The notes below the pieces were generated by a model. The model was given only the letters and a program-made list of their open reading frames with translations. It searched no databases and was not told the DNA's origin. The position numbers were made by a program, and so were the translations under genes. This document shows, piece after piece, positions 697 to 38,660 of a stretch of DNA of 64,000 nucleotides. The stretch's first letter is position 1. Every line of letters starts with the position of its first letter. Source of the stretch: Bugula neritina (Eukaryota > Animalia > Bryozoa); contig OZ037772.1 of NCBI GenBank assembly GCA_964035545.1, positions 1,240,001-1,304,000 on the forward strand, given 5' to 3'.

Positions 697-1001
697 TGTT
701 ATAATTTTCAGTTTAGGGTTGATATGCTATCCAGAGAGTCTATTTATCTAGTATAGAACTGCACCAGGCTAAGTCGAGTGAACGAGTATATTTTATTCAC
801 AACTATACATCATAAAAACACGATACATTATTTCTAACAAGTTACACATCTAATCTATTTCACACTCTAGCTTCGACTGAGTTAGCAGCGGGAAACTACA
901 ATTGCTGCTAACTATCAACTACGCTAATTGGCTATCCATTGTTCCGGGTCAATTACGCGACCCTACATGTTGTGCTGCTGGTAGTTCCACGAACCACCAC
1001 A
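697..1001 (-). repeat. 3' LTR of Gypsy A copy 1 (TGTGG...TAACA on minus); AATAAA at 797-792
   Basis: Direct repeat of 7883-8187, preceded on the minus strand by the PPT. Confidence 0.97.
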
Positions 1002-1032
1002 CCGCCCCCACCAGCAGAAAGCCATCTTTCTG
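1002..1032 (-). promoter_or_regulatory. Polypurine tract (GGTGGGGGCGG, 1012-1002) preceded by hairpin CAGAAAG-ATGG-CTTTCTG (1032-1015)
   Basis: G-rich tract abuts the 3' LTR. The same arrangement occurs in copy 2 and in family B. Confidence 0.85.
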
Positions 1033-1280
1033 ATAAATATATATAAAAACATTCAATAGTAATTGCATACATCAGTGGACAAAAATAATACATAATATAC
1101 AGGAAGAGACATAATAATACACAGAGTCGTTATAACGATCCGTTGCATACAATTGGCCAGCTGTAGATAGACGAGGAATACTAGCTAGCTGTGGTATTAG
1201 ACAAGGAATAACCTGTCTAGCAGTTAAGCATTTGCACGAGTTTGGTTCTTCACCAAATGTGGAGTATTCTGGATATGTAT

Positions 1281-2357
1281 CTAGAGTCCTTGTTGGGCAC
1301 GCCGGTGCTTGGCTTGGCATGTACGCAGTTTCCGTTTCATACGGCATACGGATCCCTTCAGCTGGAAGAGTCCTGTGGTAGTGTTGAGTAGATCTGGCGC
1401 CAGCTGGGTGAACTCTTCTTGTAATCGTAGGAGGCGTTCTTCTACTGTAGCTAGTCGTACTGGGTCTGGGGACGGTGTCCGTCTGCGGCGTAATGGTGGA
1501 CTGGGGGACCTGGTCCGTCTCTTCGCCGGGGTAGGGGAGATCTCTCCTTCTTCTGGATATGTAGTTTCCTCGGGGGTGTAGGAAATGGGAGGGCGGTCAG
1601 ACACCAACGGGGATTGTTGGCGGGCGTTGTCTAACACACTTTGGAACCCCGAGGATAGAACGGCTAGTAGCATGGCCTTCTTTACCAGAGGTCGTATATA
1701 TGTGAGGAACTCCGGGTACAGCTTAGCGTCGACCACATAGTTTTCTCCAGGGAAACAGCCCGCCGCTCTGTGTCTGGTGACGGGGTAGGGATACACATCA
1801 TTGTACCCGCAGGGGCAGAAGGTCAGTAGGAGATGAGCGTTGACGTGTAGTTTGAGGGAGCGGTGAGAGGCGCAGTCTTCACCACAGATCTGGCATCTCG
1901 TCCGTCCTCTGGACCCCCAGGCTGTTTCTATTTCTTCTTCGGTTTGTGGAGACACCCACCGCCAACGACGGCGTAGTGGCTCAGGCCGGTCACCACTAGA
2001 ATAGTCCTCCGGATACGGAGCGGGAAGTGTTCTATCCCGTACCCTAGTTGTAGCGGGTCGAGTGTAATCTGAAAAAGTTTCAACAGTGTTAGTACATTAC
2101 ACTGCTGTGTTGTCAGCTTGAACAGCTTGGCAACTCCTAATTCAGTTACCTCGTAGAGATTAATGATAGTGAATAGTCAGATAGAACCGTATTGCAATGA
2201 GATTATAAAAATCTCTAAGTCAAACTAAGTTCTTACTACAGTATTTCACTAACCTATCTCCAGCTCGATTGACTCAGTGAGTCAGAGCTGAGCGATGCAA
2301 TCTAGTTTCGTATTAAGATATAGTTAACTCACCCCACGATCTGTTGTGGTAAGACAT
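1281..2357 (-). CDS. ORF3 accessory protein (C2H2 and CxC..H..C zinc fingers, Arg/Ser/Pro basic patch, coiled coil); predicted spliced model join(2357-2333, 2068-1281), 270 aa
   Basis: Motif CQICGEDCASHRSLKLHVNAH..FCPCG..RHRAAGC. ATG lies 25 nt after the pol stop. Donor G|GTGAGT, branch point TACTAAC and acceptor TTTTTCAG| are phase-1 compatible. Homologous to 15363-16832. Confidence 0.8.
2261..2290. promoter_or_regulatory. Palindrome with two AP-1 consensus sites (TGACTCA-G-TGAGTCA) inside the predicted ORF3 intron
   Basis: Sequence cagctc-gat-tgactca-g-tgagtca-gagctg; identical at 31263-31292. Function is inferred only. Confidence 0.4.
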
Positions 2358-2381
2358 ACTGAATATGTGAAATGGTTTGAA

Positions 2382-5300
2382 CTACTGCTTAGAAACACGT
2401 CTACTCTTGACTGCATCAGCGTATGAAAAGATCGAGCAACGTGGTTGGGGTGCGTGATTAAGACTTTGTGCACCCGGCGGATGAATTTTGTTCCTACTTC
2501 CGCCGATACAAAAGTTGATATTTCCGTGGTGTTGACAACTCCCACATTTGCTCGATTCTTTTCTCGTACGGTTTTCCCCTAGACTTTCATGTGTGCCGCT
2601 TTTAACGCAGTCACATACGAAGTCCTTCAAGTATGCGGGGGGTTGCCTCGTACGCTGTCCCCTTTCTAGGGGGGGTGACACGCTTGCCGGTTCGTTAGTA
2701 GGGGCCTCTAATGGCGTCTCTACTTCACCGTCAGCAGTCACCTCTTCTTGTTCTCCGGATGGAGCCCCTCCCTCCGTGGGGGTTTGCACTTCCGGAACCG
2801 GCTCGGTTTCTGGAAGTGATGGAATTAGACTTGGCGGTGGCGGACACGCTTCTGTTGCCAGAAGCTGCCGCTCCTCTCTCACCAAGTTTTCTTCCCGCGG
2901 TATGACCACTTCGTATTCAGGTCCATGCCGCCGTCGCCCGCGCGTCGTTGTCTGCCTCCTGGGCTCTAACAACGGGGGGCTTCTCCCACTCCGCCGGGGC
3001 TAGCCCAATACGGTTTCAAGCGAGACTCATTCTGGATAGACACCTGTCCTGAGCGCTCAATCTTGTACGTATGATTGGGCATGGCCTCGACGACCACGTA
3101 GGGGCCTACGAACTTAGGCTTCAGCTTATCAGCCTGTCCGCGGCGCCTACGGTAATTGACCATCCACACCTTATCTCCTCTTTGATAGAGGGGTGGTTCA
3201 TCGGAATCTTCGTGCCGCACCTTCCACTGCTGTTGACGCAGTATCTCGTGTGCGGCCTTCATCCGTTCCACTAGTTCACTGGCATACTCGTGGACTGAGT
3301 TATCCTGCTCTGGAACGTGATAGGTGAGATGGTCAGGGACACGAGTCTCTCTCCCGAGCATCAAGAGGTTTGGGGTCTCACCAGTACTGGTGTGTGGGGT
3401 GCTACGGTATGCACGCATGACTTGCGGCAACACCGTATCCCATTCCTCTTGACCTCGTCCAAGGAGGAGACTCCGGAGCGCATCACCTAACATCCGGTTG
3501 TTGCGCTCCACCACCCCGTTACCTTGAGGGTGGTAGGGGGTGGTCCTGCTATGATTTACTCCCCAGAGGTGGCAAAGGTCGCTCATCAGTTGAGACTGGA
3601 ATTGAGCGCCTTGATCAGAGTGTATCTGTTCGGGAAGCCCAAAATAACAGAATACGTGTTGGTCTAGTGCCCTGGCCACTGTTGGGGCTGATGCATCTGG
3701 GATAGCCAGAGCATCCGCCCACCTAGTAAAGTGGTCGGTTAGTACTAGGATCCAATTATTGCCTCTGGGGGTCAGGGGCATGGGTCCGACCAGGTCTACA
3801 GCGACTACTTGCCAGGGCCTACCAGCATATAGCCTCCGCCGTCCTGCTTCACCAGGGGGGCGGCTATGCTTACTGGCCTGGCAGATCTCACACTGTTTGA
3901 CTCTGAGCCGGACGTCACGCTCCATCTGCGGCCAATACCACCGGAGTCGTAATTTGGACATCACTCGCTTGACCCCTGCGTGGGCCTGCTTGTGAGTATC
4001 CCAAATCAACTCACGGCGGATGGCTGTGGGGCAGACTACCCTCTTCCTTTCCGGGTGTCTGCCGCTGGCAGCTAGAGAGATGGTTAGCAACCCATCCTGC
4101 CCGATCCGCAGCGAGTCCCAACGCTGACAGTATAGCCGGAATTCGGCGCATCCCTGTCTTATGCGTTCCTCGCTGGGTCGTCGCCCTTCCCTTTTGGCCC
4201 GGTAGATGTCTGCCACGACTCCAGGCAGCTCTTCTTGGAGCTTCTTCAGCTCTCGAACATTACCGGCCAGTACAGGGTTGGCGCGGAGGTTTTGTATATC
4301 CTCCGGGGACTCATCAACTCTTTGCCTGAGTTGACCTTGATCCCAGTCAAACGGTGCTCCGTGATGAGCCAGCGTCTCCAACTCGCATCGAGGGGGACCT
4401 CCATCCCTCCTCTCGATGTTGAGACACTGTTTGCAACCTCCGTCAGGTCGGCGGCTCAACCCATCCGCATTGCTGTGTCTCTTGCCCGGTCGGTGTTCGA
4501 TCCGGTACGAGAATTCAGCTAGGATTTCGAGCCACCGGGCGACCTGACTAGAGGGCTCTGCTCTCCTGCACAACCAGATCAGCGAGGCATGATCCGTACG
4601 CAGCCGGAACTTCCTGCCATATAGGTATGGTCTGAAGTGCTTCACTGACTTGATTACTGCCAGCAGCTCCTTGCGGGTAGTGCAGTAATTTCGTTCAGCG
4701 GGAGAGAGAGACTTGCTGTAGTAGGCTACTACTACTTCTCGGCCTTCCTGCACTTGTGACAGCACAGCGCCAACATTCTGGTCACTGGCGTCCGTGTCTA
4801 GGATGTACTCCAGAGTGGGGTCTGGGTAGGCCAAGATGGGCGCCGTTAGGAGGCAGCCCTTGAGGCGGTCGAACGCTTCTTGTTCGACTGGAGTCCACTG
4901 CCACGTCACTCCCTTTGCGGTAAGCCGGTTTAACGGCTGGGCTATGCCCGCAAAGTCTGGTATGTATTGCCTGTAATACCCTACCAGCCCCAAGAAAGCC
5001 CGGAGTCCGGTCAAGTCTTGAGGGGTGACCCAGTCTTCTACTGCCCGTACCTTTTCGGGATCCGTTGCCACGCCGTTTCGACCGACAACGTGCCCCAGGT
5101 ACTTGACCTCCGGCTGCAACAGAGCGCACTTGGAAGGTTTGAGCTTAAGACCGGCACCTCGGAGTCTCTCGAAAACCTCCTGCAGACGACTGACATGTGT
5201 CTCGAAGTCTGGAGAGATTACGATGACATCATCGAGGTAGACCAGCAGTGTCTTCCAATGGAGTCCGCTAAGGACTTGTTCCATCAGCCTCTGGAAGGTG

Positions 5301-6949
5301 GCTGGGGCGGAGGTTAACCCGAAGGGCAGCACCTTCCACTTCCACAACCCGTCCCGTGTGATAAACGCCGCTTTCTCTTGGGCGTCGGGACTCAGAGGAA
5401 CCTGCCAATAGCCGCTTAGCAAGTCTAACGTACTGAAGTACTTGCTGCCGGCTAGGGCGTCCAATGACTCGTCAATACGAGGTAGAGGGTAGGCGTCCTG
5501 TATGGTTACGCTATTGAGTTTGCGGTAGTCCACACAGAACCGCCAACTGCCGTCTTTCTTCCGGACCAGTACGACTGGCGAGCTCCACGCACTATGGGCG
5601 GGCTCTATCAGTCCCCGGTCCAGAAGATCCCGTACTTGTCGGCTAACCTCCTTCTCTTTCTCCGGCCCCAGCCTGCGTGTGGGCTGCCGGACAGGGACTG
5701 TCCCTGCAGTCAGCGGTATTTCGTGTCTGACAATTCCAGTCAGTCCCACGTCATGCTCTCCGCTGCTGAACACATCACCGTAGTCGCGTAGTAACTTGGC
5801 CATAGCTTGGCGCTCTCTGTTACTCGCGCAGCCACCACTGGCCGTCTCGTATAACTCCCGGAGATGTGTTGGGACTGCCCCTCGTCCCTGAATAGGGTGT
5901 CGAGGGGGGGCCTCTGTCGCATCACTCAGCGACGGGCCTACGTCTCCCTCTTGAACAGAGTGAAAACGGCCCAGCATCGACCCAGCCGGGAGCTTGATAG
6001 GCTCGGTAAAGGGGTTGACGCACTGCACTAAGATCTCCCCTTGCTCAGTCAGCTGATTCAGACTGCTGGCAAGTTGGATCTTTTCGTGCGCGCCTTCAAC
6101 CACCCCGAGTCCAGAGATCCGGCTACTATTCACCCTGCAGTGAATGGTAGCCCGGGAGCGGCCTGGTATGGTACGGTTGCGTACCACTTGCACACCTCCC
6201 ACTAAAGGGCAGCCGAACTTGTCGACGCAGGCAAGTTCCCGCCCGGACATCATCATTGCAGATCTGCTAAAATCTATGTGACATCCGTGCCGTTTAAGGA
6301 ACGGCATCCCGAGGATAGCATCCTCCTTGAGCTGACTGACGATGAACGTCTCTTGGATCGTTTGATCGCGGACTCGTCCCGTCAGCTCAATTATACCATA
6401 GAAGGGAAGGCACGACCCGTCAGCTAGGGTGCCGTATTCCCCTTCGTATGCTTCCATCTCGCCCCTGACCCTAGCACTGAGGGTGTCGAAGAGTTGGCGG
6501 CTTAAGAGGTTCGTGGTACAGCCCGAATCAATGAGAAAAGTAACAGCTTTGCCTTCCAGTTTACCGGGCAAGAAATAGCTGTTCCCATGGGGCTGCACCT
6601 GAACTCTCCCTTCAGGCCTGACTCTCGCAGGGAGTACCTCCCTCGCTTTGGGTCGCGAAGGAGGTCTCTTGGGGCGGTGATAGGTAGGCCTCGGGGGTGC
6701 CGAGGCTGGTTTCTCAGCTACCTTTGTGTGCTCCCATCCAGATTCTTGGACTTGTAGCCCTGTGAATCTGTTGTGAAGGGGCATAGAAAAGGCAGCCGCG
6801 GGGCGAAGCCCCTTGCTGGTCCGTCGCGGCTGTTGCCACTGTTGGTTGCCAGTACGCGGTGCCCGTCTGGGTGACCTGCGTTTCTTCTTCCCTAGAGGTT
6901 TCGTCGGCCCGCGGAAGGTGGGAACATCTGCGGGCCGCGGTAGTTTAAC
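2382..6949 (-). CDS. pol: Gypsy pol (protease, RT, RNase H, integrase); a 1-bp deletion at 2974-2979 removes the last ~196 aa of the integrase tail
   Basis: LIDSG protease, YLDD RT, TDAS RNase H, HHCC plus D,D35E and GPY integrase motifs. G6 run here versus G7 at 31976-31982 in copy 2. Confidence 0.95.
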
Positions 6950-7851
6950 CCCTGATTTAGGAAGGGACAATATCGGCGGAAATGTCCTTGATTTCCGCAC
7001 TCCCAGCAAAAACTGACTGTTTCTCCCTGTGGCGGCGCCAATGGCCGCATGGGCTCAGGGGCGGTACTCACTGGGTTTTGTGGGGTCAGTGTTGCTATCA
7101 GCTTGGCTAGCATGTCCGTCAGTTGAGTGACTTTTGATGCCGTCGCCAACTGGGACACGGCAGCCGCGGCGGGGGTTTCCTCCCCTTGTCCCGCGGCCGT
7201 GTCTGCGCGGTCTATCTCCACTTGGCGGGAGCTTCCGCGACTTTTATGCATTTGGTTAGCTAGGAGGTAAGCTTCCCCCTCAGTCAGAGCATCTTCAACG
7301 GTGGTGACTCCCCTAGCTAGAAACTGGTGGTGGAGACCCAGATCGTCGACAGATGCTATGAAAGCGTCGAGGGTGTACCTCTCGCGGTTGACTGGGGGCA
7401 AGTCGCTGTATGCGATCTGTGCCAGCTTCATGACCGCGGTGGCATGCTCCCGCAGCGGGGTGCGGGGATCACGCCGCAACCTCTGTAATCGGGCCCTGGC
7501 ATCTGTAGTCGAGAGGCCAAAACGGGCCCGCAGAGAAGCAAAGATATTATCAATGTCTACGCCCAGCCCATAGGGCTTGGCTTTGTCCATCAATGCCATT
7601 CTAAGCTTCAGCAGCGCCACCCTAGGGGGCCACTGAGCGACGTCCATTACGTCGCTAAACTCTTGAATAAATTGTTCCACCTCCTCTTCACCCGTGAAGG
7701 TGGGCGCCTTTAACCTGTAGCGGTCTTCAGCTAGTTCTCGCGGAACCCTTCGCTCTTCTACTACATGGTTAACAGGCATTGTCTCTACAGCATTGTCTCT
7801 ACGCTCACCTTCGATTGCCGGTGGTTGAGTTTCAGCATTTTCAGTCTCCAT
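6892..7851 (-). CDS. gag: Gypsy gag, 319 aa, with CCHC zinc knuckle
   Basis: CWECGNQGHFRRYC knuckle; ATG just downstream of the PBS; overlaps pol in the -1 frame. Confidence 0.95.
   Translation of the reverse strand: METENAETQPPAIEGERRDNAVETMPVNHVVEERRVPRELAEDRYRLKAPTFTGEEEVEQFIQEFSDVMDVAQWPPRVALLKLRMALMDKAKPYGLGVDIDNIFASLRARFGLSTTDARARLQRLRRDPRTPLREHATAVMKLAQIAYSDLPPVNRERYTLDAFIASVDDLGLHHQFLARGVTTVEDALTEGEAYLLANQMHKSRGSSRQVEIDRADTAAGQGEETPAAAAVSQLATASKVTQLTDMLAKLIATLTPQNPVSTAPEPMRPLAPPQGETVSFCWECGNQGHFRRYCPFLNQGLNYRGPQMFPPSAGRRNL
6905..6949 (-). promoter_or_regulatory. Predicted -1 ribosomal frameshift signal: G_TTA_AAC, 5-nt spacer, GC-rich hairpin
   Basis: Heptamer at 6949-6943 is in the gag phase and pol is in the -1 frame. 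Stem CGGCCCGC...GCGGGCCG at 6937-6905. Confidence 0.75.
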
Positions 7852-7863
7852 CTTGGATGCACT

Positions 7864-7881
7864 ATCCCACTGCTGCCACCA
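7864..7881 (-). promoter_or_regulatory. Primer-binding site TGGTGGCAGCAGTGGGAT (tRNA-Leu type)
   Basis: 18 nt starting TGG, one base after the 5' LTR; near-complementary to the 3' end of metazoan tRNA-Leu(AAG/TAG) as I recall it. Confidence 0.85.
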
Positions 7882-7882
7882 C

Positions 7883-8187
7883 AGTTATAATTTTCAGTTT
7901 AGGGTTGATATGCTATCCAGAGAGTCTATTTATCTAGTATAGAACTGCACCAGGCTAAGTCGAGTGAACGAGTATATTTTATTCACAACTATACATCATA
8001 AAAACACGATACATTATTTCTAACAAGTTACACATCTAATCTATTTCACACTCTAGCTTCGACTGAGTTAGCAGCGGGAAACTACAATTGCTGCTAACTA
8101 TCAACTACGCTAATTGGCTATCCATTGTTCCGGGTCAATTACGCGACCCTACATGTTGTGCTGCTGGTAGTTCCACGAACCACCACA
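7883..8187 (-). repeat. 5' LTR of Gypsy A copy 1 (U5 end mutated CA>CT)
   Basis: Apparently identical to 697-1001 except for the terminal base 7883. Confidence 0.97.
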
Positions 8188-10906
8188 ATAACTCACGCTC
8201 AGTAATTGCACAAATTACTACAATATTATAATGATAATTATTATATTTATTATATTATTATTGAATATATTATTTCATTAGAAAATAGGTTGCAGCTTAG
8301 CATGATTAAAATTCAGTAAAAATTAGTTTACCAACAGCAAACATGCATGCGTCTTGTCAACATTCAATTCGTAGTGTCATAGCGAAGCCAGATTACTGGT
8401 AGTACGACTACTAGAACTACTACTACTAGTGATGGATTACAGATCCTTGGCGATTTTAGCTGTGAGTGACCTTCACCTCACATTCTCGTCATGTGCGCGG
8501 CATTAGACTAAGTAGAGGGTATGAAGCACTGAGCTGGAATAGAAAGAATATATTTTAATTATAGGTAATACTAATAGTAATATAATTTATGGTAATATAT
8601 AGGTAATATTATTGAGTTCATTGGTATGGAGTATAGACCTATCACTGATAGTATCAGTATCAACTACCACTTACGTACTACTTCAACTTATGACTTACCT
8701 TCAACTCCAACTCAAACTGAAACTGCTTGGAATCATTTGTCTTTGATCATATTGGCATTGTCATTGTGATTGTAATAACTATTAATATTTTTAGTTCAAC
8801 ATCAATGCCGAACATATTGTAATAACTAATAAGATAATCATAAGGTTGATATATTTTGCTAATACTAATACTAATAGTTATAGTAATAGTTATAGTAATT
8901 CAGTGTCACTCTCACTCTGGTGGAGTGAGACTCAGACTTAGAGTTAGAGACAGAGTGAGTCCGAGTAAGTCTGAGTGTTGGTAATAGTAATAGTCATATA
9001 AATTTAAATTATATTTACTTATTTCTAGCAATCACAATGGCAATAGTTATAGTAACTTTCACTTACTCTTAAATCTTTGAACCTGAACTAAAAGTAAAAT
9101 TAAGCATTATCATTATGATTATCATTATGATTATACCTATGATTTTATTATGTTTAAATTAAAAATCAATATCATGATAATATCATAGTGATAGACATAT
9201 TATTGATAAATGATAATATAAAAGTAATTTGATAAATTATACATTGATTTTGAATTAAGGTGATACTGATACTAGACCGGTACTGAAAGTGATAGTAATA
9301 CTAATAGTAATAGTAATAGTCATATAAATTTAAGTTATATTTACTCATTACCGGCAATCACAATGGCAATAGTAACTTAAACTGTAACAGTAATGGTATG
9401 GGTATGTTTGAAATTGTCACTATCAGTATTGCTATGAATCAAAATATAATGCTATCATACCAATAATTTAAAATAATATTACAAAGCTTCAGTAGCAACT
9501 TTTACTTGTACCAGTTTGGAATTTTGAATTATACATATTCTTAGTTAAAGTCTTCAAGTTTATTGTCAAAATGAACTTGAAATTAAAGACTTAGTAGTAA
9601 AAATTAAACTAAGACTGACTGTAAGTGACTAAGATTAAAAATAAGTAATTTTAAATATCGATTTAGTATTTTTCTTACTCTTTGTCTTAAAATTGACTTT
9701 TATTTTGCACCTACTCCTGGTCAATGATTCTTTTTTCTATTTATATTACTATTGCTATTAGTATAATTGACTTAAATTTAATAATAGATATGATTGTATC
9801 TTTATAAATGTGATATTTGATTTTATGAATAGTACTTCGAAAACTCTTTGGTATTATTTATTTTTGATCATTGTAGTTATTATCATTATATTTGTATAAT
9901 AATTATGATTATCAAATTCAATATCGATATTTGTATTATGGTATGGATATCTGCCTCCATCCCATGTTCTGTTTTGCAGTGCCTTTTTACATTCACGTCT
10001 AGGTTCACATTGCGATGGTCATACTGATTGCACTTGGGGACAGTGATGAGCATAATGATTATCACTAATATTAGGATTATCGTTATTAGGATTTAGAATA
10101 ATTTAATAAACAAGCAACTTAAAACAAATGTTTTTACTAATATACATATTAATTACTAATATAAATATACTACTATGAATATTATAATTATTATACTTTA
10201 CAATTCAAAGTAAGATAATCATAATACGAACTGGTAAAACTAAATATAAAGTAAATGTAATAATACTAATAGTAGTTATCCATTCCCCTTTGGTTTCACA
10301 TACTAATAATTGGAAACCTCTGTCCTAATATTATTTCTATTAATATTGCTCAAAGTTTGATCCCTATTTAATTTTATAGTTCACTCACCAGCTACATAAT
10401 TTTATTAAAATACATGTGGTATTGGTTATAGTACTAGTGAAACTTGAAGTTGAATAGCATGCTTATTACTCACTGCTCTTTGCTTACATTATTAGGGTTA
10501 CTCTTTAGTCTTAGAGATACCCTAACATAAACTTGAAAGCTGGAGGTAGTACTAGTCTAGTGCTGTGTTAATCCTACACTGTTGACTTATCAACACTGTG
10601 ACTATAATTATGACTCCTAAGTCAAAGTCATTTTCATATAGTAGTAATCACTATGACAGACTGAAAGTCAGGAAGACTAAATATAATGGTAAAGTGTGTA
10701 AGAATAAATCATACTTAATCAATTACTTTTAGTTTTGTTACCAGTGTTGGGTCAACTTTCAGAATAAAGAATAAATATAATTATAAAGATAAATGGATAA
10801 AAATTCCAATCATGGTTTAATGTGCCTATTTTAAGCTGTTAATTTAATTACTATAATATAAGTGCTCAAAATACAACTTTTGATTTTCATAATTATGTTT
10901 TAATTT

Positions 10907-13900: not shown

Positions 13901-14011
13901 ATAATATGATAAATGCATTATAACTTTCTGACAAGTTTTTTTGCAAAGTATATGTTTTTGGAAAATAGTTTTACAACATTTGCTAGGAGCATTATATTTA
14001 TTCCTATCTAA
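10907..14011 (-). mobile_element. Second copy of the right end of the giant element (inverted copy of 52271-59473 without the ISL2EU insertion)
   Basis: Begins exactly at the TIR CAGTATATATTTTCC. Collinear and highly similar to 59473-52271, with the empty AT site near 11419. Confidence 0.93.
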
Positions 14012-15298
14012 GCTAGCAAGCATGGCCGCCCCACGGAAACCACTGGTCGACGCCGGCTGTACGCTGGTCGACCGTGGCAAGTAGTGGCGGTAGACCTCGT
14101 CGGGCCTATGCCGTTATCCGCCAGAGGAAACAACTGGATACTGGTGCTCACGGACCACTTTACCCGGTGGGCAGATGCTCTGGCTATTCCAGACGCCACC
14201 GCCCCCACGGTGGCCCGGACCCTGGACCAACATGTATTCTGTTACCTCGGTTTGCCCGAGCAGATACATACAGACCAGGGTGCCCAGTTCCAGTCCCAGC
14301 TCATGGGAGACCTCTGCCGGATATGGGGGGTGAACCAGAGTCGGACCACCCCATATCACCCGCAAGGGAACGGAGTCGTCGAGCGGAACAACAGGATGTT
14401 GGGTGACGCGCTCCGGAGCCTGCTGCTTGGTCGAGGTCAGGAAGAATGGGACGTGGTGCTGCCGCAGATCATGCGGGCTTACCGCAGCACACCACACTCC
14501 GCCACGCAGGAGACCCCAAACTTCCTGATGTTAGGCCGGGAGACGCGGATCCCGGAACACCTGACGTACCATGTTCCTGCCCCCGAGTCACCGGTACACG
14601 AATATGTGGAGGGTCTGATGGACATCATGGGCAAAGCTCATGATGCGCTGCGCACACAGCAGTGGCAGACCCGCACCGAGGACTCAGAGGAGCCCCCGTT
14701 GTACCAAGTGGGAGACTGGGTCTGGATGGTGAGTTACCGTAGGCGGCGTGGACAGTCGGCTAAGCTTCAGCCCAAGTTCGTCGGCCCCTACTGCGTAGTA
14801 GAGGTGCTGCCCAACCACACATACCGTGTGGAGCGCTCTGGACAGGTCTCTGTCCAGAGCGAGCAGCGCCTCAAACCTTACCATGCCAGCCCAGACGCGG
14901 TGGGTCAGGCTTCACCCCTCTTGGAGCCCCACCATCAGCCCAACCGTCGTGGACGGGCCACCCGGCCCCGTGAGGTGGAGATCATGGTCCCCAGGGAGGC
15001 AGACCAGGAGCAAGCCGCCCTGATAGAGCAGCTGGAGCGACAGCAGAGAGCGGAGCGGGAGCAGGAACAGCAGCAAGCCCTTGGCTCACAACCCTTCCCG
15101 GGGGAGGACACCCCCACCCCCGTACGGGGTGAAGACGGGGACCCCCCTACCAGGGTAGCCCAGGAGCCACCAACACCACCAGAGTCTGTTCCACTTGAGA
15201 GGAGCCAGCGGCCAAGAAGACCTCCCAGGTACCTGGCAGACTATGCTGTAGGACACCTGGAGGGGCCCCCTCCTGAGGAAGACCCCCCCCCACACTGA
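14012..15298 (+). pseudogene. pol: Integrase core and C-terminal part of family B pol (5' part deleted)
   Basis: AVDLVGP, HTDQG, NGVVERNN, GPY and RRPPRYLADY motifs. The frame stays open after TGA 15296-15298 until TAA 15461-15463. Confidence 0.93.
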
Positions 15299-15362
15299 CT
15301 GCCACCCCATCTTGGTTGGGAATTCCCTCCATCACCCCGGAGAATTCCACCAAGAAGAAGAA

Positions 15363-16832
15363 ATGGCCGACCGAATTTCGGAAGACACTCGATTACGCGA
15401 GTTGTCTCCTCGAAATCCGGGGGAAATTCCCACGAGCCACGCGACTCGGGCTTCAGCAGGTAAAACTTCTGAAGCACGAGGTTCGGCCATTTCTCATTCT
15501 GACTTCACACAGCTCGCACGGCAGTTGCAACTCAAACTAAATTCTGATTCTAATACTCATTTTGATTTTACCACTATTCTCCGTACGCTATCAGCGGCTA
15601 TGGGGATCACTCTACCAGATACACAATCAGGTATTTCTTCTAGATTAGATCCTCCAGTTGCGGAGTCTAATCAAACTACAGTAGACTGGTCTTTACTAGA
15701 TTTACTTGGTTCTGATATCTTAGGACCGGAGGCCGAGATGGATCTCGGAGATGACTCTGCCATTGATACATTGTTGAATCACGATGTAGGCTCAGTCAAT
15801 TTCTGCGATACACCTCGGCCCTCGGTTTTTAACTTATCTCCATTCACACCTGTGCCAAATTTCGGCGATAGTGAGACCGGCTTCTCACAGCCTCTACTAT
15901 CTATTCTAGAGGAGCGAATGGACGTTGAGGAGGCCAGTCGGTCCGACTCCCCTCCCCCACCGGGCCTTGCTTCGGCTTCTACCAGCCAGCAGGCCGTCAC
16001 CTCCTCCACAGAGGTGTGTTCCGCCATGGTTGGCCCTGACCCCAAACCGGTCGAGCTTCAGCTCACGGCCGGGGAGGAGCAGGGCATCCTACACGGCGAC
16101 CACCTGCCAGCAGAAGAAGATGCCTCCCCAATACTGGCCCTGCCTCGGGCCCTGGTCGCCCGCCAGTATTGGGTGACTGGACCCACCAACCTAAAAATTG
16201 GTGATGCTTGCGGTGAGCCGGGCAACCGCATCTGCCATGAGTGTAAGAGGAAATTCTCCTCTGCACGGCGGTTGCGCGTACACGCCCCTCAGCATTACAT
16301 CAACGTGTTTTGCCCGTGTGGGGAGTTCTCCTACCAGAGAGACTATGTGTTGAGACATCAGCGCATAGCTCACTGCCACACGGGCTACACGTTTGCTGTA
16401 GACCAGGCCTCCTTTCCCGAATTTTGGGACCTGGTGCTGCCACACGTGGCGGATCCCCACAAACGGGCTGCTCTCGCCCTGGGATTCCCCGCGTGTAGGC
16501 CTGTTCGGGAGGAAGAAGGGGAGCCCGCCGCGACACCCCAACCGGCAGCCACCCAGCCACTTCGGGTCATGCTGGCACGGGTCGGACCAGGTGCCAGGGC
16601 CGATTCATCGGACCTGGGCCCCCGACCCTCGGCGGCGGGCGAGAAGCAGACGCACCGCCAGCGACGTCCTGCCCGTGGTACTACCGACCGCCCTAGGCAC
16701 CAGACGTCAGCTCAGTTGGCAGAGGAGGTTCACCAGTTACGCCGGCAGCTCCGCAGATATGAAGAGGAGCTGGGGCAACTCCGGAGACGAGTTAGCCGCC
16801 TGGAGCGGGGTCGATCTGGCGACCGCCGCTGA
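15363..16832 (+). CDS. Family B ORF3 accessory zinc-finger / coiled-coil protein (489 aa unspliced)
   Basis: CHECKRKFSSARRLRVHAPQH..FCPCG..RHQRIAHC..VD..FPEF..LGF aligns with family A ORF3. C-terminal heptads LAEEVHQLRRQLRRYEEELGQLRRRVSRL. Confidence 0.85.
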   Translation: MADRISEDTRLRELSPRNPGEIPTSHATRASAGKTSEARGSAISHSDFTQLARQLQLKLNSDSNTHFDFTTILRTLSAAMGITLPDTQSGISSRLDPPVAESNQTTVDWSLLDLLGSDILGPEAEMDLGDDSAIDTLLNHDVGSVNFCDTPRPSVFNLSPFTPVPNFGDSETGFSQPLLSILEERMDVEEASRSDSPPPPGLASASTSQQAVTSSTEVCSAMVGPDPKPVELQLTAGEEQGILHGDHLPAEEDASPILALPRALVARQYWVTGPTNLKIGDACGEPGNRICHECKRKFSSARRLRVHAPQHYINVFCPCGEFSYQRDYVLRHQRIAHCHTGYTFAVDQASFPEFWDLVLPHVADPHKRAALALGFPACRPVREEEGEPAATPQPAATQPLRVMLARVGPGARADSSDLGPRPSAAGEKQTHRQRRPARGTTDRPRHQTSAQLAEEVHQLRRQLRRYEEELGQLRRRVSRLERGRSGDRR

Positions 16833-17135
16833 GACTATTTGTGTAGTTTTTTTTTCTTTTCTTTTCTACTCTTGTTCTTTGTTGTTTATTATATGTGTGT
16901 AAGTGCTTCATGTAATGCATGTACCTATTCATGCTCTGTTTTTCTTGTGTGTGCACAAATCTTCCCTGTTTTTTTTTGTGTTATCATTGTATTATTACTA
17001 TCACTGCATGTTTACCATATTTTTTTTTCGTGTGTTGCTTTCAACTGTGTGTTTTATTGTCGTGTCATTCCCTGTTGTGTGTTTGTGTTGTGTACGCCTC
17101 TTTATCGGAAAGCATGCTTTCCGATGGGGGGTGTG

Positions 17136-17460
17136 TGTGGTAAATTTATGTTGTGTGTGTGTGTCCTTTGTTGCCGAGATCGGTACTTCGGTCCTCCGAA
17201 ACACCGATATGCCGATTCTCGGCATATCGGAATACCGAAGTACCGAAATGCCGGATTCGGTATTTCGGGTCTCCGATCTCGGCAAACAAAGGAATGTCTT
17301 TGTCCTGCATGTATATAAAAGCCAGCGAGTTCCAGTATAGTTCAGTCTACTACTGGAGCTCGCTGGATAAAGACCATTGATTCACTCGGACTATACTACA
17401 ATAAAGATTATCTACATTCTACCTTATTTCTCGCCTTGTTTCTCATACAAGCATGTAACA
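17136..17460 (+). repeat. 3' LTR of family B, with palindromic array (17164-17293), TATATAAA (~17312) and AATAAA (17400-17405)
   Basis: Follows the PPT; TG...CA termini resemble family A; Academ coding sequence resumes at 17461. Confidence 0.85.
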
Positions 17461-19402: not shown

Positions 19403-19403
19403 A

Positions 19404-29697: not shown

Positions 29698-30002
29698 TGT
29701 TATAATTTTCAGATTAGGGTTGATATGCTATCCAGAGAGTCTATTTATCTAGTATAGAACTGCACCAGGCTAAGTCGAGTGAACGAGTATATTTTATACA
29801 CAACTATACATCATAAAAACACGATACATTATTTCTAACAAGTTACACATCTAATCTATTTCACACTCTAGCTTCGACTGAGTTAGCAGCGGGAAACTAC
29901 AATTGCTGCTAACTATCAACTACGCTAATTGGCTATCCATTGTTCCGGGTCAATTACGCGACCCTACATGTTGTGCTGCTGGTAGTTCCACGAACCACCA
30001 CA
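29698..30002 (-). repeat. 3' LTR of copy 2 (AATAAA changed to TATAAA)
   Basis: 305 bp; ttttatacac here versus ttttattcac in copy 1. Confidence 0.96.
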
Positions 30003-30282
30003 CCGCCCCCACCAGCAGAAAGCCATCTTTCTGATATATATATAAAAAAAACATTCAATAGTAATTGCATACATCAGTGGACAAAAATAATACATAATAT
30101 ACAGGAAGAGACATAATAATAGACAGAGTCGTTATAACGATCCGTTGCATACAATTGGCCAGCTGTAGATAGACGAGGAATACTAGCTAGCTGTGGTATT
30201 AGACAAGGAATAACCTGTCTAGCAGTTAAGCATTTGCACGATTTTGGTTCCTCACCAAATGTGGAGTATTCTGGGTAGCATA

Positions 30283-31359
30283 CTAGAGTCCTTGTTGGGC
30301 ACGCCGGTGCTTGGCTTGGCATGTACGCAATTTCCGTTTCATACGGCATACGGATCCCTTCAGCTGGAAGAGTCCTGTGGTAGTGTTAAGTAGATCTGGC
30401 GCCAGCTGGGTGAACTCTTCTTGTAATCGTAGGAGGCGTTCTTCTACTGTAGCTAGTCGTACTGGGTCTGGGGACGGTGTCCGTCTGCGGCGTAAGGGTG
30501 GACTGGGGGACCTGGTCCGTCTCTTCGCCGGGGTAGGGGAGATCTCTCCTTCTTCTGGATATGTAGTTTCCTCGGGGGTGTATGTAATTGGAGGGCGGTC
30601 AGACACCAGCGGGGATTGTTGGCGGGCGTTGTCTAACACACGTTGGAACCCCGAGGATAGAACGGCTAGTAGCATGGCCTTCTTTACCAGAGGTCATATA
30701 TACGTGAGGAACTCCGGGTACAGCTTAGCGTCGACCACATAGTTTTCTCCAGGGAAACAGCCCGCCGCTCTGTGTCTGGTGACGGGGTAGGGATACACAT
30801 CATTGTACCCGCAGGGGCAGAAGGTCAGTAGGAGATGAGCATTGACGTGTAGTTTAAGGGAGCGGTGAGAGGCGCAATCTTCACCACAGATCTGGCATCT
30901 CGTCCGTCCTCTGGACCCCCAGGCTGTTTCTATTTCTTCTTCGGTTTGTGGAGACACCCACCGCCAACGGCGGCGTAGTGGCTCAGGCCGGTCACCACTA
31001 GCATAGTCCTCCGGATACGGAGCGGGAAGTGTTCTATCCCGTACCCTGGTTGTAGCGGGTCGAGTGTAATCTGAAAAAGTTTCAACAGTGTTAGTACAGT
31101 ACACTGCTGTGTTGTCAGCTTGAACAGCTTGGCAACTCCTAATTCAGTTACCTCGTAGAGATTAATGATAGTGAATAGTCAGATAGAACCGTATTGCAAT
31201 GAGATTATAAAAATCTCTAAGTCAAACTGAGTTCTTACTAGGGTATTTCACTAACCTATCTCCAGCTCGATTGACTCAGTGAGTCAGAGCTGAGCGATGC
31301 AATCTAGTTTCGTATTAAGATATAGTTAACTCACCCCACGATCTGTTGTCGTAAGACAT
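30283..31359 (-). pseudogene. ORF3 of copy 2, predicted join(31359-31335, 31070-30283), with a CGA>TGA nonsense change at 30696-30694
   Basis: Same splice signals as copy 1; the premature stop falls just after the zinc fingers. Confidence 0.8.
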
Positions 31360-31383
31360 ACTGAATATGTGAAATGGTTTGAA

Positions 31384-34300
31384 CTACTGCTTAGAAACAC
31401 GTCTACTCTTGACTGCATCAGCGTATGAAAAGATCGAGCAACGTGGTTGGGGTGCGTGATTAAGACTTTGTGCACCCGGCGGATGAATTTTGTTTCTATT
31501 TCCGCCGATACAAAAGTTGATATTTCCGTGGTGTTGACAACTCCCACATTTGCTCGATTCTTTTCTCGTACGGTTTTCCCCTAGACTTTCATGTGTGCCG
31601 CTTTTAACGCAGTCACATACGAAGTCTTTCAAGTATGCGGGGGGTTGCCTCGTACGCTGTCCCCTTTCTAGGGGGGGTGACACGCTTGCCGGTTCGTTAG
31701 TAGGGGCCTCTAATGGCGTCTCTACTTCACCGTCCCCGGTCACCTCTTCTTGTTCTCCGGATGGAGCCCCTCCCTCCGTGGGGGTTTGCACTTCCGGAAC
31801 CGGCTCGGTTTCTGGAAGTGATGGAATTAGACTTGGCGGTGGCGGACACGCTTCTGTTGACAAAAGCTGCCGCTCCTCTCTCACCAAGTTTTCTTCCCGC
31901 GGTATGACCACTTCGTATTCAGGTCCATGCCGCCGTCGCCCGCGCGTTGTTGTCTGCCTCCTGGGCTCTAACAACGGGGGGGCTTCTCCCACTCCGCCGG
32001 GGCTAGCCCAATACGGTTTCAAGCGAGACTCATTCTGGATAGACACCTGTCCTGAGCGCTCAATCTTGTACGTATGATTGGGCATAGCCTCGACGACCAC
32101 GTAGGGGCCTACGAACTTAGGCTTCAGCTTATCAGCCTGTCCGCGGCGCCTACGGTAATTGACCATCCACACCTTATCTCCTCTTTGATAGAGGGGTGGT
32201 TCATCGGAATCTTCGTGCCGCACCTTCCACTGCTGTTGACGCAGTATCTCGTGTGCGGCCTTCATCCGTTCCACTAGTTCACTGGCATACTCATGGACTG
32301 AGTTATCCTGCTCTGGAACGTGATAGGTGAGATGGTCAGGGACACGAGTCTCCCTCCCGAGCATCAAGAGGTTTGGGGTCTCACCAGTACTGGTGTGTGG
32401 GGTGCTACGGTATGCACGCATGACTTGCGGCAACACCGTATCCCATTCCTCTTGACCTCGTCCAAGGAGGAGACTCCGGAGTGCATCACCTAGCATCCGG
32501 TTGTTGCGCTCCACCACCCCGTTACCTTGAGGGTGGTAGGGGGTGGTCCTGCTCTGATTTACTCCCCAGAGGTGGCAAAGGTCGCTCATCAGTTGAGACT
32601 GGAATTGAGCGCTTTGATCAGAGTGTATCTGTTCGGGGAGCCCAAAATAACAGAATACATGTTGGTCTAGTGCCCTGGCCACTGTTGGGGCTGATGCATC
32701 TGGGATAGCCAGAGCATCCGCCCACCTAGTAAAGTGGTCGGTTAGTACTAGGATCCAATTATTGCCTCTGGGGGTCAGGGGCATGGGTCCGACCAGGTCT
32801 ACAGCGACTACTTGCCAGGGCCTGCCAGCATATAGCCTCCGCCGTCCTGTTTCACCAGGGGGGCGGCTATGCTTACTGGCCTGGCAAATCTCACACTGTT
32901 TGACTCTGAGCCGGACGTCACGCTCCATCTGCGGCCAATACCACCTGAGTCGTAATTTGGACATCACTCGCTTGACCCCTGCGTGGGCCTGCTTGTGAGT
33001 ATCCCAAATCAACTCACGGCGGATGGCTGTGGGGCAGACTACCCTCTTCCTTTCCGGGTGTCTGCCGCTGGCAGCTAGAGAGATGGTTAGTAACCCATCC
33101 TGCCCGATCCGCAGCGAGTCCCAACGCTGACAGTATAGCCGGAACTCGGCGCATCCCTGTCTTATGCGTTCCTCGCTGGGTCGTCGCCCTTCCCGTTTGG
33201 CCCGGTATATGTCTGCCACGACTCCAGGCAGCTCTTCTTGGAGCTTCTTCAGCTCTCGAACATTACCGGCCAGTACAGGGTTGGCGCGGAGGTTTTGCAC
33301 ATCCTCCGGGGCTGGTCAACTCTTTGCCTGAGTTGACCTTGATCCCAGTCAAACGGTGCTCCGTGAGGAGCCAGCGTCTCCAACTCGCATCGTGGGGGAC
33401 CTCCGTCCCTCCTCTCGATGTTGAGACACTGTTTGCAACCTCCGTCAGGTCGGCGACTCAACCCATCCGCATTGCTGTGTCTCTTGCCCGGTCGATGTTC
33501 GATCCGGTATGAGAATTCAGCTAGGATTTCGAGCCACCGGGCGACCTGACTAGAGGGCTCTGCTCTCCTGCACAACCAGATCAGCGAGGCATGATCCGTA
33601 CGCAGCCGGAACTTCCTGCCATATAGGTATGGTCTGAAGTGCTTCACTGACTTGATTACTGCCAGCAGTTCCTTGCGGGTAGTGCAGTAATTTCGTTCAG
33701 CGGGAGAGAGAGACTTGCTGTAGTAGGCTACTACTACTTCTCGGCCTTCCTGCACTTGTGACAGCACAGCGCCAACATTCTGGTCACTGGCGTCCGTGTC
33801 TAGGATGTACTCCAGAGTGGGGTCTGGGTAGGCCAAAATGGGCGCCGTTAGGAGGCAGCCCTTGAGGCGGTCGAACGCTTCTTGTTCGATTGGGGTCCAC
33901 TGCCACGTCACTCCCTTTGCGGTAAGCCGGTTTAACGGCTGGGCTATGCCCGCAAAGTCTGGTATGTATTGCCTGTAATACCCTACCAGCCCCAAGAAAG
34001 CCCGGAGTCCGGTCAAGTCTTGGGGGTTGACCCAGTCTTCTACTGCCCGTACCTTTTCGGGATCCGTTGCCACGCCGTTTCGACCGACAACGTGCCCCAG
34101 GTACTTGACCTTCGGCTGCAACAGAGCGCACTTGGAAGGTTTGAGCTTAAGACCGGCACCTCGGAGTCTCTCGAAAACCTCCTGCAGACGACTGACATGT
34201 GTCTCGAAGTCTGGAGAGATTACGATGACATCATCGAGGTAGACCAGCAGTGTCTTCCAATGGAGTCCGCTAAGGACTTGTTCCATCAGCCTCTGGAAGG

Positions 34301-35951
34301 TGGCTGGGGCGGAGGTTAACCCGAAGGGCAGCACCTTCCACTTCCACAAACCGTCCCGTGTGATAAACGCCGCTTTCTCTTGGGCGTCGGGACTCAGAGG
34401 AACCTGCCAATAGCCGCTTAGCAAGTCTAACGTACTGAAGTACTTGCTGCCGGCTAGGGCGTCCAATGACTCGTCAATACGAGGTAGAGGGTAGGCGTCC
34501 TGTATGGTTACGCTATTGAGTTTGCGGTAGTCCACACAGAACCGCCAACTGCCGTCTTTCTTCCGGACCAGTACGACTGGCGAGCTCCACGCACTATGGG
34601 CGGGCTCTATCAGTCCCCGGTCCAGAAGATCCCGTACTTGTCGGCTAACCTCCTTCTCTTTCTCCGGCCCCAGCCTGCGTGTGGGCTGCCGGACAGGGAC
34701 TGTCCCTGCAGTCAGCGGTATTTCGTGTCTGACAATTCCAGTCAGTCCCACGTCATGCTCTCCGCTGCTGAACACATCACCGTAGTCGCGTAGTAACTTG
34801 GCCATAGCCTGGCGCTCTCTGTTACTCGCACAGCCGTTACTGGCCGTCTCGTATAACTCCCGGAGATGTGTTGGGACTGCCCCTCGTCCCTGAATAGGGT
34901 GTCGAGGGAGTGCCTCTGTCGCATCACCCAGCGACGGGCCTACGTCTCCCTCTTGAACAGAGTGAAAACGGCCCAGCATCGACCCAGCCGGGAGCTTGAT
35001 AGGCTCGGTAAAGGGGTTGACGCACTGCACTAGGATCTCCCCTTGCTCAGTCAGCTGATTCAGACTGCTGGCAAGTTGGATCTTTTCGTGCGCGCCTTCA
35101 ACCACCCCGAGTCCAGAGATCCGGCTACTATTCACCCTGCAGTGAATGGTAGCCCGGGAGCGGCCTGGTATGGTACGGTTGCGTACCACTTGCACACCTC
35201 CCACTAAAGGGCAGCCGAACTTGTCGACGCAGGCGAGTTCCCGCCCGGACATCATCATTGCAGATCTGCTAAAATCTATGTGACATCCGTGCCGTTTAAG
35301 GAACGGCATCCCGAGGATAGCATCCTCCTTGAGCTGACTGACGATGAACGTCTCTTGGATCGTTTGATCGCGGACTCGTCCCGTCAGCTCAATTATACCA
35401 TAGAAGGGAAGGCACGACCCGTCAGCTAGGGTGCCGTATTCCCCTTCGTATGCTTCCATCTCGCCCCTGACCCTAGCACTGAGGGTGTCGAAGAGTTGGC
35501 GGCTTAAGAGGTTTGTGGTACAGCCCGAATCAATGAGAAAAGTAACAGCTTTGCCTTCCAGTTTACCGGGCAAGAAATAGCTGTTCCCATGGGGCTGCAC
35601 CTGAACTCTCCCTTCAGGCCTTACTCTCGCAGGGAGTACCTCCCTCGCTTTGGGTCGCGAAGGAGGTCTCTTGGGGCGGTGATAGGTAGGCCTCGGAGGT
35701 GCCGAGGCTAGATTCTCAGCTACCTTCGTGTGCTCCCATCCAGATTCTTGGACTTGTAGCCCTGTGAATCTGTTGTGAAGGGGCATAGAAAAGGCAGCCG
35801 CGGGGCGAAGCCCCTTGCTGGTCCGTCGTGGTTGTTGCCACTGTTGGTTGCCAGTACGCGGTACCCGTCTGGGTGACCTGCGTTTCTTCTTCCCTAGAGG
35901 TTTCGTCGGCCCGCGGAAGGTGGGAACATCTGCGGGCCGCGGTAGTTTAAC
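31384..35951 (-). pseudogene. pol: pol of copy 2 with a 1-bp frameshift near 33311 (between RNase H and integrase)
   Basis: Split into ORFs 33249-36011 and 31384-33300. ggggctgg here versus ggggactca in copy 1. Confidence 0.93.
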
Positions 35952-36853
35952 CCCTGATTTAGGAAGGGACAATATCGGCGGAAATGTCCTTGATTTCCGC
36001 ACTCCCAGCAAAAACTGACTGTTTCTCCCTGTGGCGGCGCCGATGGCCGCATGGGCTCAGGGGCGGTACTCACTGGGTTTTGTGGTGTCAGGGTTGCTAT
36101 CAGCTTGGCTAGCATGTCCGTCAGTTGAGTGACTTTTGATGCCGTCGCCAACTGGGACACGGCAGCCGCGGCGGGGGTTTCCTCCCCTTGTCCCGCGGCC
36201 GTGTCTGCGCAGTCTATCTCCACTTGGCGGGAGCTTCCGCGACTTTTATGCATTTGGTTAGCTAGGAGGTAAGCTTCCCCCTCAGTCAGAGCATCTTCAA
36301 CGGTGGTGACTCCCCTAGCTAGAAACTGGTGGTGGAGACCCAGATCGTCAACAGATGCTATGAAAGCGTCGAGGGTGTACCTCTCGCGGTTGACTGGGGG
36401 CAAGTCGCTGTACGCGATCTGTGCCAGCTTCATGACCGCGGCGGCTTGCTCCCGCAGCGGGGTGCGGGGATCACGCCGCAACCTCTGTAATCGGGCCCTG
36501 GCATCTGTAGCCGAGAGGCCAAAGCGGGCCCGCAGAGAAGCAAAGATATTATCAATGTCTACGCCCAGCCCATAGGGCTTGGCTTTGTCCATCAATGCCA
36601 TTCTAAGCTTCAGCAGGGCCACCCTAGGGGGCCACTGAGCGACGTCCATTACGTCGCTAAACTCTTGAATAAATTGTTCCACCTCCTCTTCACCTGTGAA
36701 GGTGGGCGCCTTTAACCTGTAGCGGTCTTCAGCTAGTTCTCGCGGAACCCTTCGCTCTTCTACTACATGGTTAACAGGCATTGTCTCTACAGCATTGTCT
36801 CTACGCTCACCTTCGATTGCCGGTGGTTGAATTTCAGCATTGTCAGTCTCCAT
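35894..36853 (-). CDS. gag: gag of copy 2, intact 319 aa
   Basis: Near-identical to 6892-7851, with the CCHC knuckle. Confidence 0.95.
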   Translation of the reverse strand: METDNAEIQPPAIEGERRDNAVETMPVNHVVEERRVPRELAEDRYRLKAPTFTGEEEVEQFIQEFSDVMDVAQWPPRVALLKLRMALMDKAKPYGLGVDIDNIFASLRARFGLSATDARARLQRLRRDPRTPLREQAAAVMKLAQIAYSDLPPVNRERYTLDAFIASVDDLGLHHQFLARGVTTVEDALTEGEAYLLANQMHKSRGSSRQVEIDCADTAAGQGEETPAAAAVSQLATASKVTQLTDMLAKLIATLTPQNPVSTAPEPMRPSAPPQGETVSFCWECGNQGHFRRYCPFLNQGLNYRGPQMFPPSAGRRNL

Positions 36854-36884
36854 CTTGGATGCACTATCCCACTGCTGCCACCAC

Positions 36885-37169
36885 TGTTATAATTTTCAGA
36901 TTAGGGTTGATATGCTATCCAGAGAGTCTATTTATCTAGTATAGAACTGCACCAGGCTAAGTCGAGTGAACTATACATCATAAAAACACGATACATTATT
37001 TCTAACAAGTTACACATCTAATCTATTTCACACTCTAGCTTCGACTGAGTTAGCAGCGGGAAACTACAATTGCTGCTAACTATCAACTACGCTAATTGGC
37101 TATCCATTGTTCCGGGTCAATTACGCGACCCTACATGTTGTGCTGCTGGTAGTTCCACGAACCACCACA
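36885..37169 (-). repeat. 5' LTR of copy 2, 285 bp (20-bp deletion)
   Basis: Lacks gagtatattttattcacaac; the deletion lies between AAC microhomologies. Confidence 0.96.
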
Positions 37170-38269: not shown

Positions 38270-38660
38270 CGACGCATCAGCCTTCTCCTAAAAATATTGT
38301 CTAAGGAAGAACTACATCCAACTCTGAGTGCTGCCTATGATGATTTTCTAGATCAGCGGACCACAAGCACTGTACAGACTCGGTCTCAGGTTGCAGGATT
38401 TCCCAGATCAGTAAGAGCAAACAAGAATGGGTATCTTTATAGTTTTCTCCCAAGAACAATAAGAGATATGAGGATCAGCACTGATCACACACAGACAGGC
38501 TAGTTAGCCTGTTAAGTTAATCTGCACAAGAATGTTAACACTTTTTAGATTACTGTCCAAATACTGACAACTTAGTTTTTTATATGAGGCACACCCCTTC
38601 TTCCCTCTAGGGAGGTCCAGTGTGGAAATAACATCGACAGGTATCGACAGGTATCGACAG
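38270..38660 (+). mobile_element. 5'-truncated CR1/L2-group LINE (end of ORF2, 3' UTR, tandem tail)
   Basis: Absent from the paralogue near 8928. TSD GAGTC (38265-38269 and 38661-38665). YLYSFLPRTIRDM resembles the SFFPRTIRDWN ORF2 C-terminus. Tail of three ATCGACAGG(T) units. Confidence 0.8.

Follow-up and report, generated by a model that had tools for sequence, protein, structure and literature searches.

The 64-kb stretch of DNA analysed here (the window) consists of AT-rich, animal-like sequence (GC about 0.3) and GC-rich mobile elements, including two copies of a Gypsy LTR retrotransposon, family A, and a 5'-truncated element of a second family, B (Table 1). Pfam matches within family A pol run in the Gypsy order of protease, RT, RNase H and integrase; each copy carries one pol frameshift, and the identity of the copy 1 LTRs over 304 nt, together with the 4-bp target-site duplications (TSDs) around both copies, indicates young insertions. 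Whereas the first-pass annotation spoke of two divergent families, this overstates their separation, since the A and B integrases share 80% identity over 300 aa and the two are best regarded as families of a single clade. Directly after pol, in both A copies and in B, lies a third open reading frame, which we call ORF3.

Table 1. Features of families A and B in the window: feature, position, strand and description
Family A Gypsy LTR retrotransposon, copy 1	697..8187	-	TG...CA ends; 4-bp TSD ATAA; pol frameshift near 2990
Copy 1 3' LTR	697..1001	-	purine tract precedes
Family A ORF3 exon	1281..2068	-	261 full codons after phase-1 acceptor
Coiled coil, family A	1290..1463	-	C-terminal end basic
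Arg/Ser/Pro-rich patch, family A	1467..1529	-	particular to A's own subfamily
Conserved core of ~125 aa, family A	1608..1985	-	W-helix, C2H2 finger, CxC-x12-H-x4/5-C finger, VD strand, three helices; seven-ligand motif 1770-1895
Non-coding spacer, family A	2069..2381	-	GC 0.37; stops in all frames; ends in TACTAAC branch point (2094) and T-rich AG acceptor; predicted intron end
Family A pol	2382..7054	-	protease, RT, RNase H, integrase, SH3-like C-terminal domain, long tail; two frames in copy 1
Family A gag	6892..7851	-	ATG 7851; 319 aa; one CCHC knuckle
Predicted splice donor, family A	7803..7811	-	last exon base 7809, 43 nt from gag ATG start, phase 1; best of 430 GT sites in element
Primer-binding-site-like 18-mer	7864..7881	-	after copy 1 5' LTR; presumably tRNA-Leu
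Copy 1 5' LTR	7884..8187	-	identical to 3' LTR over 304 nt
Family B integrase and pol tail	14012..15298	+	element 5'-truncated, spans 14012-17459
Family B ORF3	15363..16832	+	frame open from 15252; acidic N-terminal region, core (finger motif 16233-16358), basic linker, coiled coil
Family B 3' LTR	17137..17459	+	palindromic U3 with 14 CCGA/TCGG words; TATA 17312; hairpin 17322-17366; AATAAA 17400
Family A copy 2	29698..37169	-	98% identical to copy 1; TSD CTAT; pol frameshift near 33280; ORF3 premature stop; finger motif 30772-30897

The ORF3 core carries eight putative metal ligands in the pattern C-x2-C-x12-H-x3-H, then C-x-C-x12-H-x4/5-C. In both families the first finger keeps classical C2H2 spacing (position +4 is Leu in 82% of 78 aligned rows, and Phe is the top residue in 42%), while the second departs from it. 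The A and B proteins align at 35% identity over 115 aa (E 2e-16), and a DNA pattern written for seven of the eight ligands matched three times in the window and in none of 100 shuffles. The motifs quoted in the first-pass annotation are indeed present directly after pol in both A copies and in B; its statement that both A copies encode the core stands for the motifs themselves, but in copy 2 the frame is interrupted by a premature stop beyond the fingers. The extent of the gene had to be redrawn: rather than a single gene at 1281–2357, the frame is open over 1281–2096 only, and 2070–2381 contains 6, 6 and 12 stops in the three frames. The Arg-rich patch, reported as shared by the two families, occurs in only 2 of the 48 A-type proteins that contain both core and coil, the two being from A's own family, and we rejected an Arg-rich linker as a conserved functional motif. 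The basic stretch that is conserved is the C-terminal end of the coil (41 of 42 A-type proteins); a basic linker is present in 13 of 25 B/C-type proteins. The coiled coil proposed earlier is borne out by a C-terminal helix, residues 202–259 of the 261-aa model, predicted with high confidence.

ORF3 is a real gene and not env, as the first reading of the locus had concluded from the lack of a signal peptide and a transmembrane helix: the highest 19-residue hydropathy reaches 1.36 in A and 0.94 in B, with no transmembrane helix in either, and exceeds 1.8 in 7 of 207 homologues. Errantiviral env occupies the same slot and is typically expressed from a spliced mRNA (PMC10309623, PMC5408684), but ORF3 has neither the helix nor any Pfam or Foldseek match to viral fusion glycoproteins, and its architecture is incompatible with env. 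The bryozoan elements described in PMC13524379 carry only a gB-type env, in the order gag–env–pol, and the term 'zinc finger' is absent from the main text of that paper. Family-specific third ORFs also follow pol in bdelloid LTR retrotransposons, typically spliced and some with coiled coils (PMC5408684, PMC6431247), but these are GDSL esterases, DEDDy nucleases, and coiled-coil or transmembrane proteins, the main text of PMC5408684 containing neither 'zinc' nor 'finger'. The MDG1 sORFs (PMC11952523) and the extra ORFs reviewed in PMC6431247 are other proteins. ORF3 thus apparently belongs to a protein family not previously described, in an arrangement of a familiar kind; as the first-pass annotation had supposed, we found no description of it in the literature listings and open-access main texts searched.

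ORF3 is under purifying selection, with pN/pS of about 0.12–0.13. Across the 261 codons, copies 1 and 2 of family A differ by 11 synonymous changes, 3 non-synonymous changes and 1 stop (pN/pS 0.13, p 1.5e-4), as compared with 37 synonymous and 15 non-synonymous changes in pol and 7 of each in gag. Variants in two sequencing runs, RNA run X1 and run X2, give a similar picture: among the best-supported 40 of 63 rows, 32 lie in the exon, of which 24 are synonymous and 8 non-synonymous (pN/pS 0.12; 23 of the 32 at third positions), X2 being possibly the window's own source and hence not fully independent. The constraint that had earlier been deduced from the kept metal ligands is therefore visible in the substitutions, and the ratio lies far from the value near 1 that had been named as a refutation. 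Between families the gene changes far faster than its neighbour, A and B retaining 35% identity in ORF3 against 80% in integrase.

The frame of family A ORF3 offers no ATG before the fingers, its first Met lying after them. Scoring of splice sites throughout the element, by a weight matrix for donors and a crude score for acceptors, revealed a strong candidate pair: the donor within the gag leader (Table 1), and an acceptor with exon start 2068 in phase 1 that ranks third of 284 by the crude score and is preceded by a full TACTAAC at 2094, a T run and AG. The predicted intron of 5740 nt would join the first 14 gag codons (donor 7809) to ORF3 in frame; matching of the two phases had a one-in-three prior chance. 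Among A-type homologues that reach the acceptor site, 29 of 31 read S-D, L-D or S-G there, whereas the residues upstream vary, a pattern that, as judged from protein letters, fits a YAG|G junction. No RNA contig crosses the 7809–2068 junction, run X1 offering a single 219-nt contig over the finger region. We predict from these signals that the family A protein is made from a spliced gag-leader mRNA, as is CERV of Cer1, a Ty3/Gypsy element of C. elegans, whose non-env 3' ORF is spliced to gag-frame exons and is required for export of genomic RNA (PMC10309623). The first-pass annotation had noted neither the missing start codon nor this precedent. Family B has an in-frame ATG at 15363, with an N-terminal region similar to that of relatives throughout, and also a phase-1 acceptor candidate inside ORF3 at 15700, the best in 15201–16200; it may use its own ATG or this internal acceptor.

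We examined the fold through a model of the 261-aa A protein built from 93 sequences (pLDDT 83.9), in which an ordered core is joined through a disordered linker to a helix of 58 residues; modelled alone, the core reaches pLDDT 95.7 and pTM 0.87. Pfam returned only weak C2H2 matches (zf-C2H2_4 in 9 of 93 members at E ≤ 0.01), sequence matches in the PDB were confined to finger 1 and generic coiled coils, and a Foldseek search of PDB and viral models produced no hit at E ≤ 0.001. Structural comparison of the core with VIA placed DNA-bound tandem C2H2 pairs first—Kaiso (Z 3.9, rmsd 3.0, 57 residues aligned) and SALL4 ZFC4 (Z 3.6, rmsd 3.0, 51 aligned)—although these were tied with unrelated helical chains, the overlays cover about 55 of the 126 core residues, and none of 48,161 chains reached Z 5, which is not proof of a new fold; the full model matched generic coiled coils only. 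ORF3 resembles Kaiso/ZBTB33, SALL4 ZFC4 and BCL11A in the canonical spacing of finger 1 and in an overlay of the pair at about 3 Å over 50–57 residues, but differs in its CxC-x12-H-x4/5-C second finger, in having no TGEKP-type linker, and in embedding the pair in a 125-residue domain with extra helices that those proteins did not match. The models thus lend weak support to a finger pair in a DNA-binding-like arrangement, within a larger domain that has no clear match.

Homologues proved numerous. A phmmer search with ORF3 found 59 proteins among 1,496 candidates, a wider search found 102 cluster representatives at E ≤ 0.001 among 1.84 billion, and a profile search gave 84 matches among 7,981 scored. 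Alignment of 78 non-redundant domains shows the eight ligands conserved in 87, 95, 94, 94, 100, 97, 94 and 76% of rows respectively, together with an upstream Trp and Thr and a downstream Val-Asp. Of 28 clusters looked up for names, four gave an organism, in each case a bryozoan, which makes a cheilostome bryozoan the probable host of the elements. A DNA pattern based on ligand spacing matched no viral contig, one metagenome contig (L001) and one prokaryotic contig, the latter rejected as chance because it shows no ORF3 similarity and encodes a bacterial helicase. A profile of 31 distant members recovered three proteins, all already contained in it, and gave no spread beyond bryozoans.

We next considered how far the domain is tied to retrotransposons. 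Linkage to an element is seen for the three copies in the window, and is indicated for others by their sequences: among 57 N-terminal extensions, those of the read-through homologues P0071 and P0162, on separate branches of the tree, begin with pol-tail sequence, and those of P0004, P0022 and P0047 begin with sequence matching the family A spacer. L001 holds a broken gene for an acidic arm and fingers, 145 nt behind the stop that follows a pol-tail-like motif (recognized by eye from A and B), and so probably keeps ORF3 in the same post-pol slot. By contrast, confinement of the homologues to the interval between pol and 3' LTR, which the first-pass annotation had looked to as support for novelty, is unsupported for four clusters that correspond to annotated bryozoan genes (Watersipora subatra XP_067940963/4 and XP_067944745; Bugula neritina KAF6040923 and KAF6037488). 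Two of these four have the domain doubled. In all, three homologues (P0156, P0160 and P0100) contain the core twice, two of them annotated bryozoan genes (Watersipora, Bugula) and two ending in a coiled coil; they are possible domesticated host genes.

Such host genes might suggest that ORF3 is a zinc-finger exon recently captured from the host and carried as passive cargo, and KAF6037488 and its shorter cluster mates do differ upstream of a point that, judged from protein letters, is compatible only with a phase-1 acceptor. The phylogeny points elsewhere. In a tree of 78 rows and 125 columns—78 of 175 domain hits kept after redundancy removal, L001 excluded by the coverage filter, and the midpoint root used for drawing only—the A clade, the B clade and a third clade fall inside one supported group (96/88), with a double-domain Watersipora protein just outside it and about 26 more distant rows beyond. 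The Bugula KAF6037488 cluster nests within the B clade (99/97), among element sequences, a position that favours domestication, or an element annotated as a gene, over recent capture and fits either better than a source gene. The purifying selection within family A, and the retention of one slot by A, B, the two read-through homologues and probably L001, likewise speak against the idea, which we consider very improbable: 'passive' and 'recent', the latter named by the first-pass annotation among its refutations, are largely refuted by pN/pS near 0.12, while ORF3 may have been captured from a host gene long ago.

What, then, might the protein do? Taking all such readings together, ORF3 is probably an element-encoded nuclear regulator, as the first-pass annotation had proposed. 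Among them, we think it quite possible, though short of an even chance, that the product binds DNA at specific sequences and trans-activates the LTR of its own element. On this view the core would form a single two-zinc domain and the coiled coil would let the protein oligomerise; basic residues would bring it to the nucleus, where the finger pair would read a site in element DNA, and in B/C-type proteins the acidic N-terminus would recruit co-activators, creating a positive feedback that would mirror the accessory trans-activators of complex retroviruses.

The B/C-type proteins contain the parts expected of a transcription activator: an acidic N-terminus, DNA-type helices, a basic linker in about half, and the coil. 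Among their N-terminal extensions of at least 60 aa, 15 of 16 have a net negative charge, and a D/E-x-LL-D/E-like motif is present in 8 of 16. In the finger 2 helix Asp stands at +2 in 24 of 25 and Arg or Lys at +6 in 21 of 25; finger 1 has a basic residue (Arg or Lys) at +2 in 22 of 25, and its +3 position is Arg in 20 of 25. Such residues fit canonical DNA-reading helices, and because the finger 2 pair also occurs in the distant class (Asp in 18 of 31, Arg or Lys in 20 of 31), it looks like the older state. The A-type proteins contrast in both respects: their second finger has prolines at helix +1 (46 of 49) and +3 (49 of 49), a pattern that partly served to define the class and that speaks against this finger reading DNA in the usual manner, and they have no acidic arm beyond the predicted 14-residue gag leader. 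Having lost the arm and rebuilt finger 2, the A type may have shifted its ligand or its job. N-terminal acidic motifs of the W-A-D/A-E type occur in the distant homologues P0136, P0146, P0148 and P0150.

A candidate target for the trans-activator is the palindromic array in the family B U3 (17164–17293), a large nested palindrome (RNA fold z -9.7) just upstream of the TATA box. The family A LTR has none of B's CCGA/TCGG words. Just after the B TATA box lies a near-perfect hairpin (17322–17366, z -6.0), with only a weak counterpart in A (z -1.8); a TAR-like reading of it was set aside, as it starts about 10 nt after the TATA box with the start site probably inside. Structural support for trans-activation is weak, the modelled matches lying below Z 4 and tied with unrelated helical proteins. 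Also counting against it, CERV is the sole characterised Gypsy gene with such a position and splicing, and acts in RNA export rather than in transcription (PMC10309623).

ORF3 could be imagined as a Rev- or CERV-like adaptor that, made from the spliced mRNA, would attach to unspliced genomic RNA, form multimers there and thereby permit its export from the nucleus. The gene logic is that of CERV: the post-pol slot is shared, and ORF3 is likewise predicted to be spliced to gag-frame sequence (PMC10309623). A strong donor and acceptor would make the genomic RNA intron-containing, creating a need for export, and the A-type finger 2 is unlike a DNA reader while the coil of these proteins ends in an Arg-rich run. 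Yet the acidic arms and DNA-type helix residues of the B/C type are not needed for export, and RNA folding revealed no response-element-like block in A: the spacer has no strong structure (z -1.9 and -0.8), and the 29 of 148 windows with z ≤ -2.5 are scattered through gag and pol. The proteins differ too. CERV (517 aa) is divided into H, M and G domains and contains a C4-type loop, no homologues beyond nematodes being reported (PMC10309623). ORF3 combines the ligand set Cys2His2 plus Cys2HisCys in a 125-residue finger domain, followed by a coil at the C terminus, and its B/C types add an acidic arm; it leaves no room for a G domain, and neither this nor the C4 loop, as the paper describes them, is seen in its sequence or model. 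Sharing gene logic with CERV and not domain layout, ORF3 is not filed as a CERV member, from which it is set apart by description; by analogy it may nonetheless work like one, with the export function established for CERV only. We regard a role in RNA export as unlikely, if a serious competitor to trans-activation.

A different kind of nuclear activity is hinted at by the pace of change, ORF3 diverging far faster than integrase between families yet under purifying selection within them, as in host conflict. On such grounds the protein could be an anti-silencing or chromatin factor that would block repression, rather than activate directly, by attaching either to the element's DNA, perhaps in methylated form, or to a host silencing protein; the top structural match, Kaiso, is a methyl-CpG reader, and the B U3 words contain CpG. 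However, the Kaiso match is weak and tied with others, Pfam identified no chromatin-reader or enzymatic domain in ORF3, and fast divergence is common to accessory genes whatever their function. We judge this reading improbable, and return to trans-activation as the preferred one.

Complex retroviruses offer a parallel in their accessory trans-activators and export factors, where small spliced 3' genes—foamy virus Tas, HTLV Tax and Rex, HIV Tat and Rev—regulate the element's own expression, as ORF3 would. No sequence or structural match of ORF3 to the accessory proteins of complex retroviruses was found, and these are not known to be built around a classical C2H2 finger pair. It is commonly assumed that LTR retrotransposons leave transcription and RNA export to host factors, and for most third ORFs other than env no function is known; in these elements that slot holds a compact, well-folded, selected domain with many natural variants, yielding predictions that include an exact splice junction, a candidate target in the B LTR, and a contrast between A and B in finger 2 and acidic arm. 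If ORF3 is a trans-activator, regulation in the style of complex retroviruses arose separately in invertebrate Gypsy elements, and mobile elements have a new route by which to supply zinc-finger genes to hosts. The most far-reaching version—that animal Gypsy elements include an old lineage with a zinc-finger transcription factor of its own, which has an undescribed two-zinc domain, is expressed from a spliced subgenomic RNA, and binds the LTR to switch it on, and that bryozoans have repeatedly domesticated the domain as part of host genes—is possible but on balance doubtful; if true, it would endow a retrotransposon with a feedback circuit like that of a complex retrovirus.

The window contains further features of its own. 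The family A integrase tail (2382–2999, minus strand) extends about 70 residues beyond the motif at which B pol ends and contains a Cys/His-rich stretch. An AT-rich repeat of 2.6 kb occurs in inverted orientation at 11419–14011 and 52271–54862 (98% identical), adjoining the 5' truncation point of B at 14012, and further inverted blocks link 8234–11420 with 28818–29697, 37172–39341 and 58960–59473; nested insertions and local inverted duplication are alternative explanations. Directly after the B LTR, at 17508–19403 (minus strand), three consecutive ORFs (234, 310 and 164 aa) resemble a broken DNA-transposon transposase with what we take to be Academ-like motifs, and have no Pfam match at E 0.01. 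Decayed ORFs at 41465–42431 (minus strand), likewise lacking a Pfam match at E 0.01, look by eye like the RT tail of a non-LTR retroelement. Finally, a PIF/Harbinger-type transposase (DDE_Tnp_4, E 2e-43) is encoded at 55817–56641 (minus strand) with 57445–57915, between inverted repeats of 751 nt and 271 nt.
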